Shown: piece by piece, positions 49,638-53,636 of the stretch
Layout of the letters: the number at the start of each line of letters is the position of its first letter
Numbering within the stretch: the stretch's first letter is position 1
Assembly (NCBI GenBank): GCA_964458565.1
Contig: CAYWJO010000006.1
Coordinates: forward strand, 52,892-116,891
DNA: 64,000 bases
Source of the DNA: an uncultured archaeon
GTDB taxonomy: Archaea > Asgardarchaeota > Thorarchaeia > Thorarchaeales > Thorarchaeaceae
Direction: 5' to 3'
Translations under genes and position numbers: made by a program
The notes under the pieces: generated by a model
Seen by the model: the letters and a program-made list of their open reading frames with translations, nothing else
What the model was told of the DNA's origin: nothing
The model's database searches: none

Positions 49638-49811
49638 ATGGCAGATTTTTGTGTGAAAAAAGCAGTCCAAGATTTCGCTAAAGCGAATAACATGATGGTT
49701 GGTAGCGACTCATATGGAGCCATCAACAAGGCAGTAGAGGTAATGCTAAAGGAGGCAGCAGCTCGCTGCAAGTCCAATGGCAGAAAGACCCTCAAAGCCT
49801 ACGACTTTTAA
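49638..49811 (+). CDS. Archaeal histone, short-alpha3 type, tail-less (57 aa; absent from ORF track)
   Basis: MADFCVKKAVQDFAKANNMMVGSDSYGAINKAVEVMLKEAAARCKSNGRKTLKAYDF*; L2 motif RKTxxxxD; 41/56 identical to 53433..53636. Confidence 0.88.
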   Translation: MADFCVKKAVQDFAKANNMMVGSDSYGAINKAVEVMLKEAAARCKSNGRKTLKAYDF

Positions 49812-49832
49812 AGCGACCTAGTTCAATGATAC

Positions 49833-49870
49833 TGGAGAGTGGGATTACTTTAGTGCTCCCACTACCTCCA
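49833..49870 (+). terminator. 3' hairpin after histone gene 1
   Basis: TGGAG-AGTGGGA...TCCCACT-AC-CTCCA followed by ATTTT. Confidence 0.6.
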
Positions 49871-49938
49871 ATTTTGTGATTCCCTCTCATTCTTGGCCTT
49901 TTCATTAGATAGCATGATGAGTCACATTAAGTGTGATT

Positions 49939-49972
49939 AAAAAATGAAAAGGCTGCACTTGATAGTACAGCC
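49939..49972 (-). terminator. Hairpin plus U-tract terminator of the 50021 gene
   Basis: GGCTGCACT-TGAT-AGTACAGCC stem preceded on + by A-tracts. Confidence 0.6.
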
Positions 49973-50020
49973 AGATGTTTTAGGATTCGGAATATCATCA
50001 CAGTGAGTGCCTAGAGGTTA

Positions 50021-50770
50021 TCACCGGATAATTCGTCCTCCCCCGCCGCCGCCACCGCCACTATTTGGAGTCCCATCAAAATAGGTCGAAACATAATCCG
50101 ATTTAGAAACCATATTGTATGGCCCATAAAATACACGAAACTTCCAATCTGTGTGGAAAGAGATTCTCACATTCACAGCCTCGCCTTCATAGGTTCTAAC
50201 AATTATAGTTGCTCGAAAAACATGAGCAGCTCCAATTGCACCCCAAGTCATATCGAGATTCCAACTTACATCTCCGCCCCAGTGTGTATCTGGATCTTTT
50301 GTGATTATCACATCTGGTAGAGCGTATTGCATAGTAGCACTAAATCCAACGCCATCACCATTTACACCAACACTAGCTTGCCATTGTACAGTTGCATCAG
50401 AACGATCAGGTAGTGAATCAACAAGCATCTGGTGTGAGTTCAGGAAATTAATTTGAGTCCAAGCTGATTCTATATAACTAGGAGCCCACCAGTTCCCTTG
50501 CGCGTATGAGGGATTAATGGTTTCAATGACATAGATTGCATAGTAATCATATGTAGAATCTGAATTCTCCAGATACTCTATATTTATTTCATAAGCCATA
50601 AATCCAAGATACACATTGATAAGCGGTCCTGAAACGTAGTATTGATGGTAATCGATAGTATTGAAATACGTGTAATCCGGGTCGGACCAGAGCTCTTCAG
50701 CATTCACCGACGCTGGTTGCATAGCAATAATGATTGCTATCAAAGCTACTAAAATGAGTCTTTTTTTCAT
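50021..50770 (-). CDS. Secreted beta-rich protein, possibly leukocidin/alpha-hemolysin-like
   Basis: Signal peptide (AxA site VNA); LVDSLPDRSDAT-VQWQASVGVNGDGVGFSATMQYALPD...VSWNL; poly-Gly C-terminus. Confidence 0.6.
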   Translation of the reverse strand: MKKRLILVALIAIIIAMQPASVNAEELWSDPDYTYFNTIDYHQYYVSGPLINVYLGFMAYEINIEYLENSDSTYDYYAIYVIETINPSYAQGNWWAPSYIESAWTQINFLNSHQMLVDSLPDRSDATVQWQASVGVNGDGVGFSATMQYALPDVIITKDPDTHWGGDVSWNLDMTWGAIGAAHVFRATIIVRTYEGEAVNVRISFHTDWKFRVFYGPYNMVSKSDYVSTYFDGTPNSGGGGGGGGRIIR

Positions 50771-50965
50771 CACTATTCCTCCATATTATTCAACCTTCAA
50801 AAAAAATTGAATGATTGTCTGTCCAATTCAATTAATATAAGGATTCAGAGAACCTCAACAGAATGGACGTAGACTGACATTAAAGAAAGAATCATCCATG
50901 TCTAAAGTTTACCACTGCAATATTTGTTGAGCATATGGAAAACGCGACTTAACAAATGGCCATGT

Positions 50966-52444
50966 TTACAGGAGGTGCTCAGATATCTCGATATCATCGG
51001 AGGCATTGATGTAACCTCTCTTACCATACTCATAGTGTTGGTATATCTCGATAGGAGACCGTGTTGATGGTCGCCAATGATTCATAATCACCCTAACATT
51101 CTCCACTCCATCCTCTTCCGTTAGACCTGTAAAATATGTGTGATAATCCACTAGATGATTCATAGGAGCCTCAAGCATTATCATTGCACCACAATCGGAT
51201 ATCGAATAAAAGACCTCAGGAAAATGGGAGGAGATATAGAAAAGGCGTTTTCGCCATTCCCGATTGCAAGTGAAGTTGTAGCTGATATTATAGTGGAGTC
51301 GAGCTCTGAAGAATAGAATAGGAACCAAAACTGTCCTCTCAAAACCAAGTCTTAGACTTCGCGAGATTTTCGATGATGAATAATGCCATCCCAAATGTGT
51401 TAGAGCTACTCTTGTTTCCTCCAGGGTTCCGTTCAGATAGCGTCGTCCTACATCATGTATTCGAAAATCACTGAGCCTCATGCCGCTACGGTATCCATTA
51501 TGCTTCAGACGCGCTGTATGACCTCCAATGATTTCAGATACATAATATTCACCGCTCTCAACACAAGCAGGTAGCTGCCAACTTCCATTTTGAATCAGAG
51601 TAGGGCAGCTATGTTTTCCGATCTCATGTTGATGTTGGATACTGAAGGAGTCAAAGAGAGATGTAGCAGCATCATGGAGGTTTGACTTAAATCTCTGAAC
51701 CGTCTTCTTCTTTCCAGGTATAGCAAATGAAGCATAGCCAGTTTCACTGAGAGAGGGTTTATGAACAACCATTGTAAATGGGAATTGTAATAATGCAGCG
51801 TTCAACCAATCCCAATCAATATCATCTTTGATTTTAAACAAGAACAAGATGGTTTCGATACCATAAGCACTCCGGTCAAGGAGAGCCATTGGTCTGATGG
51901 AATTATGCTCTACAAGAGTTGCATAACATCTACGAGTCTTCCCTCTGCCTATCTGAAGATCTCTGGCGATTTGGGTATAGGTTGCTAATGGATTGTGTAC
52001 AAGATAGCAGAACAGCTTGTGTTCCAAGTCAACAGGGAGAGAACACTCTACATGGTTTCTAAGAGCCTCATCTTTAGCATTTATGAAGTGATGTAGGTTC
52101 GGTTGTTCAATCTTAGATGCCAAGTGAAAGTTATTGACAATTTCTAGTATGGTTTCCTTAGGGTACGAATATCTTGATGGTGCTTCAAGATAATCAAGAA
52201 AGAGATGGGACATTGGTTTCTGCTTCAGTGAATTAAATGCATTGAGAAGTTCAATATGTGATATGATATTTAGACTATACGCAATTCGTATTCGTATTAT
52301 ATCCATGTACAATTGAATGAGGTTGTCTGTTGATACGAAAACATCATCATAAGGTGTTCGAATCGCATCGAGAAGAATTGATTCAGTGGGCATCAATGTT
52401 GTGCCATCGATAGTAAGCATTGGTTTCTCTACATTACCTTCCAA
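50966..52444 (-). CDS. Large regulator with tandem Lrp/AsnC-like wHTH and ferredoxin-like modules
   Basis: NPLATYTQIARDLQIGRGKTRRCYATL HTH followed by AYGIETILFLF; a second degenerate HTH (YSSSKISRSLR). Confidence 0.7.
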   Translation of the reverse strand: MEGNVEKPMLTIDGTTLMPTESILLDAIRTPYDDVFVSTDNLIQLYMDIIRIRIAYSLNIISHIELLNAFNSLKQKPMSHLFLDYLEAPSRYSYPKETILEIVNNFHLASKIEQPNLHHFINAKDEALRNHVECSLPVDLEHKLFCYLVHNPLATYTQIARDLQIGRGKTRRCYATLVEHNSIRPMALLDRSAYGIETILFLFKIKDDIDWDWLNAALLQFPFTMVVHKPSLSETGYASFAIPGKKKTVQRFKSNLHDAATSLFDSFSIQHQHEIGKHSCPTLIQNGSWQLPACVESGEYYVSEIIGGHTARLKHNGYRSGMRLSDFRIHDVGRRYLNGTLEETRVALTHLGWHYSSSKISRSLRLGFERTVLVPILFFRARLHYNISYNFTCNREWRKRLFYISSHFPEVFYSISDCGAMIMLEAPMNHLVDYHTYFTGLTEEDGVENVRVIMNHWRPSTRSPIEIYQHYEYGKRGYINASDDIEISEHLL

Positions 52445-52520
52445 ATCTACATAGCCTCATTTACTTCATAACCTAATTCTCAAAAAAATTCTTCCAATCA
52501 TCACAGTTTCATATAACAGT

Positions 52521-52645
52521 GATTAGGAAAAACCGCTTATACAGGCAAAATTGGGGCAACATATCCGTATTACTAGTCTGTCGAGTCATTTGAACCTACA
52601 CCACATTTGAGAGGTGTGTATATCATGACTGAGAAGAAATATTGA
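52521..52645 (+). pseudogene. Decayed duplicate of the tailed-histone promoter, RBS and first codons
   Basis: About 120 bp aligns nearly gap-free to 53328-53447. It encodes MTEKKY* versus MAKKKP, and the TATA-like CCTTATTAA is changed to CCGTATTAC. Confidence 0.75.
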
Positions 52646-52754
52646 AAATTAGCTCTGGAGATGCACTTGAAGCAATCTAAACTAAATAACCCACTCAGCT
52701 AGATTTTAATTAGACTTATATCGAAATAATTCGATTGTAGTAGTGAGGGTCAAA

Positions 52755-53177
52755 ATGAAGAAATATACTAGTGCAACAGTAGCTGGAGTTGTTCTCCTTG
52801 CCACGGTATTCTTGTCTATATGGCTCGGTCTATTCCTCGGTGAAAGAGGAGGAATTAATTTAGCAGCCCTTTGCGCGTTATATGCTTGGTTTCTGTTTAT
52901 CCCAAGTATTGGCATATTGATAGTTGGAGTTGTACAGACCAGAAGATACAATCGCGTGATATCAGCTGCCTATGCCAACGGAGTGATTCCGGTAGATGTC
53001 ATAGCCCAGGATCTTGGGCGTCCAGTAAAGAAGGTAAGAGAAATTCTCTACGAGGCAATATACAAAGAACATCTGAGTGGTATTGTCAAAGATGGGATTT
53101 ACCATGATCTCAGAGTTGCCACATATATCGATACACGAGCAGTCACCAGATCTGAACTAGCAAGTAACTATGTATGA
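52755..53177 (+). CDS. Two-TM protein with C-terminal PCI-like winged helix
   Basis: Two TM helices, then IPVDVIAQDLGRPVKKVREILYEAIYKEHLSGIVKDGIY. Confidence 0.7.
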   Translation: MKKYTSATVAGVVLLATVFLSIWLGLFLGERGGINLAALCALYAWFLFIPSIGILIVGVVQTRRYNRVISAAYANGVIPVDVIAQDLGRPVKKVREILYEAIYKEHLSGIVKDGIYHDLRVATYIDTRAVTRSELASNYV

Positions 53178-53432
53178 AGACGGTCGCCCCCCAAGTTCGC
53201 GCTAATAAGTGAAACATACCATCTTGTAATTTATCCGATTTATCGATTTGGCAAGTTATTGTAGTGTATTTTCTCGCAAGCCAAAATATTGAGCCTATTT
53301 CATAGATAGGAACCTGTCTTTTCACAAGATTGGATAAAAAACAGCCTCTAATGACCCAATTGACGCAAAATATCCTTATTAATAGATTAACTAGTCATTT
53401 GAGAACACACCACATTGAAGGTGCAATATATT

Positions 53433-53636
53433 ATGGCTAAGAAGAAACCAGCTAAGAAACCTGTAGCCTCTTTCATTGTAAAGAGCGCAGTTCAGGAATT
53501 TGCAAAGAAGAACAAAATGATGGTTGGCAGTGACTCCTATGATGCTCTTAACTTGAAAGTTGAGGCAGCTCTAAAAGGCGCAGCAGAACGCTGCAAGAAT
53601 AACGGCAGGAAGACACTGAAGGCGTACGATTTCTAA
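53433..53636 (+). CDS. Archaeal histone, short-alpha3 type, with Lys-rich N-terminal tail (67 aa)
   Basis: MAKKKPAKKPV followed by a histone fold ending GRKTLKAYDF; AGGTG RBS before ATG 53433. Confidence 0.88.
   Translation: MAKKKPAKKPVASFIVKSAVQEFAKKNKMMVGSDSYDALNLKVEAALKGAAERCKNNGRKTLKAYDF

Follow-up and report, generated by a model that had tools for sequence, protein, structure and literature searches.

A lysine-tailed and a tail-less face-to-face histone at one locus of a Thorarchaeota genome, a pair that probably arose by tail loss

The present analysis concerns two small paralogous genes, P0001 and P0002, in a 64,000-nucleotide stretch (hereafter the window) of the genome of an uncultured archaeon of the Thorarchaeaceae (GCA_964458565.1, contig CAYWJO010000006.1, positions 52,892 to 116,891), where the window forms part of contig C6; the assembly measures 3.73 Mb and is 93% complete. 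Judged by sequence and by structural models, both genes encode α3-truncated histones that belong to the face-to-face (FtF) class, one with a Lys-rich N-terminal tail and one without. The FtF class itself is known; in the variant described here, an archaeal FtF histone bears a Lys-rich tail and is paired with untailed paralogues, in this genome probably with a tail-less derivative of the tailed gene. Since such a tail is old and widespread in the lineage, the tail-less copy is most likely the derived or unusual state, and we infer, at a probability of roughly 0.65, that the pair arose by loss of the tail in a tandem duplicate rather than by tail gain.

Two histones of the face-to-face class

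The tail-less gene, P0001 (‘T0’), occupies positions 49638–49811 of the + strand and encodes 57 amino acids with the N-terminus MADF, and the tailed gene, P0002 (‘T’), lies at 53433–53636 on the same strand and encodes 67 amino acids counted from its ATG; the stop codon of the former and the start codon of the latter are 3.6 kb apart. An earlier note, made from the letters of this DNA alone, had reported two histone-fold genes at this distance, and both open reading frames (ORFs) were confirmed on the + strand and found to be intact. The note had counted 41 of 56 identical residues between the two products; by BLASTP the 41 identities stood, but the denominator is 57 (E 5e-28). The extra N-terminus of P0002 reads MAKKKPAKKPV, and the tail comprises residues 1–13 (positions 53433–53471), of which five are lysines, so that the description of the two ORFs as a tailed and a tail-less form was borne out. 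An N-terminal extension of P0001 is ruled out by an in-frame TAA two codons upstream. For P0002, an alternative TTG start at 53415 appears in the ORF list, but this codon overlaps a conserved Shine–Dalgarno-like box, AAGGTGCAAT, and the orthologues also open with Met-Ala-Lys-Lys-Lys, so that the ATG is preferred. No start codon occurs in frame between the tail and Met29, so that a start after the tail would delete helix α1, and the tail must be translated if α1 is made. The exact 57-amino-acid P0001 protein is already a called gene in the protein collection, and its orthologues carry the labels ‘hypothetical protein’ or ‘histone H3/H4’.

The AlphaFold2 models place α1, α2 and α3 at residues 7–16, 23–46 and 54–56 of P0001 and at residues 17–26, 33–56 and 64–66 of P0002, with pLDDT (predicted local distance difference test) values of 90 and 79 respectively. 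In both models, helix assignment by DSSP gives 10 residues for α1, 24 for α2 and 3 for α3, the last forming the YDF end, in agreement with the short α2 and the reduced α3 that had been noticed in the sequence. Residues 1–16 of P0002 are without secondary structure and its tail is modelled as disordered, the pLDDT falling below 50 at residues 1–5. In the published classification, α3 histones have an α3 of 3–4 residues and an α2 shorter by 4–5 residues (PMC11390915, from which we also took the reference length of a nucleosomal α2). A histone fold, a 3-residue α3 and a short α2, i.e. all the hallmarks of the α3-truncated class, are thus present in both proteins. The top sequence matches in the PDB were HTkC (9F2C, E 3e-6), HLp (9QT0) and HBb of Bdellovibrio, and Foldseek likewise returned HLp (9QT0), HTkC (9F2C) and HBb at the top, the root-mean-square deviation (rmsd) being 1.0–1.3 Å over 54–58 columns and the probability 1.00, with eukaryotic H4 ranking after them; α2 of both models superposes end to end on that of HLp and HTkC.

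Within the α3 histones, the FtF subgroup is defined as a closed tetramer that depends on R48, N52 and an RxTxxxxD motif (PMC11390915). The corresponding residues are R43, N47, R49, T51 and D56 in P0001, where F57 is a further FtF residue, and R53, N57, R59, T61 and D66 in P0002; their offsets (0, +4, +6, +8 and +13) are those of D4GZE0 with the spacing given in PMC11390915, and these columns are invariant among the homologues (alignments A1 and A3). All of the HLp interface residues (R49, S52, N53, R55, D62 and F63) are matched in both proteins, and the tetramer-interface residues are nearly identical between P0001 and P0002. Foldseek, AlphaFold2, the PDB matches and the R/N/R/T/D spacing therefore agree with the earlier assignment to the α3, face-to-face class, and the classification by structure and hidden Markov model that had been proposed as a check gave a histone-like fold of the FtF class together with a sub-threshold Pfam match: the PF00808 scores are 18.7 and 17.7 bits against a cut-off of 21.4, and only the C-terminal half is matched. 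Neither protein has what marks a nucleosomal HMf-type histone, namely a full α3 of ~10 residues and a PF00808 score above the cut-off. Bacterial dimer histones are without R48 and N52 (PMC11390915), whereas in our proteins both residues are present and invariant. NCBIfam gave no match for either protein, and DUF1931, a label borne only by the source names of some homologues, gave no Pfam match at E<=10. By analogy with HTkC and HLp, the two proteins would be expected to form a closed tetramer of two dimers that wraps ~60 bp of DNA.

The closest characterized relatives share the scaffold and differ in the tail and its partner. HTkC of Thermococcus kodakarensis (9F2C; PMC11390915; bioRxiv 10.64898/2025.12.06.692711), the archetype of archaeal FtF histones, has ~41% identity to our proteins, the same fold with a short α2 and a truncated α3, the same R/N/R/T/D interface and loop residues, and a similar length of ~57–59 amino acids. 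However, it has no tail and is encoded by a single FtF gene beside two nucleosomal histones, whereas the present genome has two FtF paralogues, one of them Lys-tailed, beside a single nucleosomal histone, and a tetramer of the window proteins is predicted by analogy. HLp of Leptospira perolatii (9QT0-2), a bacterial FtF histone that forms tetramers and wraps ~60 bp (PMC12701072), is the best structural match (34% identity; rmsd 1.3 Å over 56 columns); it also has a short disordered N-terminal extension, which is not of the MAKKK type, and no untailed partner has been described. HBb (Bd0055 of Bdellovibrio; 8FVX, 8CMP) shows the same truncated fold and RKT loop as the window proteins, but bacterial dimers of the HBb type are without the R48 and N52 that both window proteins have.

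Tailed and untailed genes in the family

To place the pair among its relatives, the N-terminus of every FtF match was read in 61 genomes of the family (this one and 60 related genomes), 58 of which carry FtF genes. These fall into two clades, separated with supports of 96/98 and 100/94. T proteins are marked by MMVGSD(A/S)Y and by an N-terminal extension rich in Lys, and U proteins carry signatures such as (Q/M/K)V(S/G)xDFY and begin, untailed, with Met plus one or two residues. By these signatures and trees T and U are two old FtF paralogue clades in this Thorarchaeota family, and both P0001 and P0002 fall within T. With metagenomic homologues included, a tail is present in 100 of the 115 T-clade sequences and in none of the 47 U sequences; in T it extends for 6–23 residues after the Met (median 10) and contains 2–8 Lys or Arg residues (median 4). 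A Lys-rich tail of the MAKKK or MSKKK type is found in the T genes of 11 of the 15 other genera, usually in the company of an untailed U paralogue, and tailed T and U occur together in 26 of the 58 genomes with an FtF gene; T stands alone in three genera and U in four. The present genome is the only one sampled that has a tailed T gene and a tail-less T-type gene and no U.

Two observations on the wider gene family were made in the same survey. In L056 (G008, contig C46) and in P0040, P0048, P0051 and P0088, the FtF fold forms the C-terminus of larger proteins of 198–260 amino acids, whose N-terminal regions of ~140–200 amino acids have no assigned function; P0040 has two matched stretches. 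In addition, seven genes (L007, L028, L033, L035, L042, L052 and L058) have an apparent TTG, CTG or GTG start where their orthologues use ATG, e.g. CTG GCT AAA AAG in genus g2, which suggests non-ATG initiation of several highly conserved T and U genes.

Searches of the present genome with two different queries (E<=10) found P0001 and P0002 as its only FtF genes and, in this 93% complete assembly, no U gene. Its one nucleosomal histone (PF00808, 50.7 bits; L003, positions 1474–1710 of the − strand, G000 contig C3) is without a Lys-rich tail and carries, if anything, a short Arg/Asp extension at its N-terminus. Two SIR2-family genes are present and no SET-domain match was found in the genome, but these families are widespread and their presence or absence says little.

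The close homologues of both proteins stem from Thorarchaeota assemblies. P0001 has at least twelve close relatives of 56–57 amino acids, with 75–91% identity and nearly all starting with Met-Ala-Asp, and P0002 has close orthologues with 78–82% identity. Scans of genome and metagenome contigs yielded a single tail-less orthologue with its DNA, L138, and comparison with it gave non-synonymous (dN) and synonymous (dS) substitution rates of 0.13 and ~1.7, the latter saturated, and a dN/dS of ~0.07. The leader upstream of the coding region is 86–88% identical between P0001 and L138, compared with 75% for the coding DNA. These values indicate that the tail-less copy is under purifying selection and has a conserved promoter region of its own. 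One related assembly contains a tail-less gene (RTU30_05115) and a tailed gene (RTU30_05130), and two further tail-less/tailed pairs are found on contigs of equal size (12808 and 2714); as judged by locus tags and equal contig sizes only, the linked pair is conserved in this lineage.

Origin of the pair and its locus

The gene upstream of the pair encodes an ArsR-family helix–turn–helix protein with long acidic coiled-coil N- and C-terminal regions (positions 48480–49355, − strand; Pfam HTH_5, E 5e-10). It is the last of six genes upstream of P0001 whose order matches that at the T locus in 10 genomes representing 6 genera, and in those 10 genomes it is directly followed by a tailed T gene; wherever other genera have a single-copy T gene at this locus, that gene is tailed. 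In contrast, no gene of the window matched any U locus in the synteny comparison. Downstream of P0002, a small membrane-protein ORF at 53817–54092 (+ strand), identified by tblastn as a conserved downstream neighbour of T, has a counterpart just downstream of T in three genomes (G005, G030 and G059). Between the histone genes lies a 3.5-kb block (49812–53336) that is specific to the lineage. Its ORFs, at 50021–50773 and 50966–52444 on the − strand and at 52743–53177 on the + strand, have no Pfam match, and in the 10 related genomes examined the T locus holds nothing that corresponds to them. As the upstream neighbours stand by P0001 and the downstream neighbour by P0002, a single ancestral T gene is now represented by two copies that flank the block.

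The course of events that we propose would begin with the tandem duplication of a tailed T gene in an ancestor of this lineage. The upstream copy would then have lost its tail codons and would also have gained a remodelled leader of three 22-nt repeats, while the lineage-specific block came to separate it from the downstream copy. Given that the tetramer-interface residues of the two proteins are nearly identical, the cell could make tetramers with zero to four tails, in which the tail would add DNA affinity and possibly sites for lysine modification.

The earlier note had instead proposed that P0002 gained its tail independently, through a tandem duplication GCTAAGAA(GAA)ACC that produced the variant pair, and this reading, in which the gain would be recent, we now consider very unlikely. 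The short direct repeat is real: within the tail DNA (53436–53462, + strand) a 15-nt unit, GCTAAGAAGAAACCA (53436–53450), is followed by a 12-nt unit, GCTAAGAAACCT (53451–53462), which encode AKKKP and AKKP and are identical at 11 of 12 positions besides a 3-nt indel, although the repeat is too short to be scored by Tandem Repeats Finder (score 30). Other tails in the family also look repeat-built, e.g. the PAAK-type tails of L018 and P0127, so that growth of tails by local duplication does occur. However, MAKKK or MSKKK tails stand at the same syntenic locus in 11 other genera, as part of the 100 tailed sequences among the 115 of T, and because it is common to their orthologues the tail must predate the gene pair. 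Moreover, the first unit (AKKK) belongs to this shared tail and only the second (AKKP) is specific to the closest subclade (P0004–P0008), whose tails have the form AKKKx-xKKPx and to which the two-unit repeat is confined. The part of the claim that ascribed the tail to the duplication thus does not stand, and the GCTAAGAA repeat would at most have lengthened an existing tail by about four codons. It is less far-fetched, though still rather unlikely, that the ancestral T gene was itself tail-less, and that an ancient duplication was followed by a single origin of the tail in the other copy and by later loss of the tail-less copy everywhere but in this lineage. The tail-less sequences do lie at the base of T, which is poorly resolved, their MAD-F/Y start recurs in the untailed FtF histones of families f2, f12 and f19 and of genus g13, and several tails read MA-(K-rich)-D, like an insertion between Met-Ala and Asp. 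Against this, genera with a tailed T occur on either side of the family tree, which is star-like and was built from two conserved neighbouring transporter-like proteins (unrooted, as the out-of-family genome G157 offers only ~35–48% identical matches, probably paralogues), so that the tail-less copy would have to have been lost in at least two deep lineages unless this genus is sister to all others. In addition, the nearest relatives of the tail-less sequences outside T0, P0124 and P0127, are tailed, and an approximately unbiased (AU) test did not reject a clade of the tail-less sequences with the P0002 subclade (p 0.47). Tail loss also has a precedent nested within another genus. G025 (L081/L230) begins MAT- where its sister G011 (L082) begins MSKKKKAKIPT-, so that about eight tail codons are missing, and the GGGGGTATA ribosome-binding box of G025 still adjoins the ATG, which points to an in-frame deletion; by sequence, this appears to be an independent and well-supported loss.

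Two further explanations concern the identity and the standing of the tail-less gene, and to each of them we give hardly any weight. According to one, it is a U orthologue that moved beside T and was partly overwritten by gene conversion. This would account for the failure to find a separate U gene in the genome and for a Gly that the tail-less copy has where many U proteins have it (SYG or FYG), and conversion between genes 3.6 kb apart is physically possible. However, the tail-less gene has the ArsR-like gene as its neighbour and so holds the ancestral position of T, and no gene of the window matches a U locus. Its signature, MMVGSDSY, is that of T, with which it groups at supports of 96–100, and its identity of ~72% to P0002 along the whole length, together with saturated synonymous sites, indicates that there is no recent conversion tract. 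According to the other, the duplication left one of the two ORFs behind without a function, in keeping with the decayed pieces present at such loci, namely the promoter and five-codon relic at 52528–52640 and the 48-amino-acid RTU30_05120 (both described below). Yet both ORFs are intact and have all of the conserved fold and interface residues, the tail-less copy has the low dN/dS and the conserved upstream region noted above, and the tailed copy has its orthologues at 78–82% identity.

Several points weigh against tail loss in a tandem duplicate. The gene tree has 54 columns only, and it places the tail-less sequences in a polytomy at the base of T, from which P0123 is the first to branch off (89/81), as would also be expected of an ancestrally tail-less form. 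Their MAD N-terminus is that of untailed FtF histones in other Asgard families. The window paralogues are 72% identical to each other, compared with up to 76% to the T proteins of other genera, so that the duplication must be old or have been followed by faster change. The star-like two-protein tree leaves the position of the genus in the family unresolved, a U gene could be unassembled in a genome that is 93% complete, and our first idea, that a decayed tail survives in the leader of P0001, had weak statistics (p 0.01–0.46).

The leader of P0002 (53337–53432, + strand) contains a TATA-like element, CCTTATTAAT, at 53374–53383 and the box AAGGTGCAAT at 53418–53427, 5 nt before the ATG. Directly before the ATG, P0002 and the T orthologues of genera g3, g7 and g10 have a GGTG(T)GCAA box and those of g2 and g6 a related purine-rich element, and the distance from the TATA-like element to the ATG is ~56–59 nt where visible (P0002, g2, g3 and g10). 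The promoter and long leader of P0001 (49537–49637, + strand) are arranged differently, with a TATA-like element, CCTTATATTC, at 49537–49546 and three tandem 22-nt units (49572–49593, 49594–49615 and 49616–49637), among which the box AAGGTGCAAT is found at 49599–49608. In both P0001 and L138 the box lies 29 nt, and the TATA-like element 101 nt, from the ATG. A period of 22 was the top self-match in both sequences (p 0.05 in the present genome, G000; p<0.0005 in L138), although Tandem Repeats Finder reported nothing in the P0001 leader at score 30. The segment 49566–49637 (1399–1470 in L138) also holds two ATTGC-N6-GCAAT palindromes, and our guess is that this leader is a protein-binding site or operator, perhaps for the ArsR-like neighbour. 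We also tried to read the leader as a decayed start with tail-coding DNA: when aligned with gaps to the tail DNA of P0002, it gave p 0.02, and when compared ungapped and in register with five 11-codon tails, p 0.01–0.46, other offsets scoring equally. This reading was dropped, as two 22-nt units fit the extra 44 nt better. RNA structure in the P0001 leader was not significant (z-score −0.87), and Rfam gave no match in 49300–53800.

The ArsR-like gene is divergently paired with the T histone gene in 10 of 10 syntenic loci, and also stands beside the T0 orthologue in L138, so that its product may be a regulator dedicated to the histone gene, or a partner of it. Within the block, the promoter, box and first codons of P0002 recur as a relic at 52528–52640 (+ strand; repeat families D2, 80 nt, 73%, and D7, 21 nt, 86%), with the codons ATG ACT GAG AAG AAA TAT TGA (MTEKKY-stop). 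It lies ~100 nt upstream of the unrelated membrane-protein ORF 52743–53177, which may be driven by this histone-type promoter. In a related assembly, RTU30_05120, a 48-amino-acid partial copy of the tail-less gene without α1, lies between the tail-less and the tailed gene. Together, the relic and this partial copy suggest that the locus repeatedly undergoes partial duplications. Further upstream in the window (43906–47641) are genes for two adjacent paralogous proteins of ~610–640 amino acids, conserved family-wide upstream of the histone locus; several further paralogous pairs of such proteins occur elsewhere in related genomes.

Tails on other Asgard histones and the meaning of the pair

The nearest parallels to a tailed and untailed pair come from nucleosomal-type histones. 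HLoB of Lokiarchaeum and HMpB of Hodarchaeales have a Lys-rich disordered tail and coexist with untailed paralogues, as here, and methylation and acetylation of their tails have been shown (bioRxiv 10.64898/2026.07.02.735847). However, they are of the nucleosomal type with a full α3 and carry tails of ~16–32 amino acids, whereas the present scaffold is FtF and its tail extends for 6–23 amino acids; P0002 thus has the tail of an HLoB/HMpB-type histone but not its nucleosomal fold. The view taken in the earlier note, that tailed Asgard histones are mostly nucleosomal, agrees with the literature searched, in which tails appear on nucleosomal-type histones only. Archaeal FtF histones are generally tail-less (PMC11390915), and abundant α3-truncated histones have been reported in one Heimdallarchaeia genome, with no mention of tails (bioRxiv 10.64898/2026.07.02.735847). 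The literature searched yielded no account of tailed FtF paralogues beside untailed ones in Thorarchaeota, which is not proof of absence.

Among 151 genomes of the phylum, FtF relatives are present in 9 of 27 families, this one included. In family f5, a tailed gene stands beside an untailed one in two complete single-contig genomes (G084 and G126; L240–L243), with the tails MAKKKKAAPKAD and MAKKKTASKAD, and in family f14 (L244 and L245) FtF histones bear tails of the MAKKK type. The f5 and f14 sequences group by family, apart from T and U (97/82), in a deep tree built from Asgard FtF histones. With its 54 columns, this tree suggests that tails were probably gained or lost several times in Asgard FtF histones, and has too few columns to decide on the homology of the tails in f1, f5 and f14. 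A tentative extension of this reading is that variant systems of tailed and untailed FtF histones have been built repeatedly in Asgard archaea, and that in the present lineage the untailed partner was re-made from a tailed gene. If this were true, it would imply selection for both forms; mixed tetramers bearing zero to four tails would then tune how DNA is wrapped, and possibly lysine modification too, independently of the tails of nucleosomal histones. Lysine modification, mixed tetramers and a function of the tail are what we infer from the sequences and models.

FtF histones are a recently recognized and widespread class, and work on the origin of histone tails centres on Lokiarchaeia and Hodarchaeales and their nucleosomal histones. 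With two independent tail-less derivatives among them, the natural pairs of tailed and tail-less forms described here are well suited to biochemical comparison. If the tails are modified or alter the wrapping of DNA, the regulation of Asgard chromatin through tails would not depend on the nucleosomal fold, and this, if true, would bear on the origin of the histone tails of eukaryotes.

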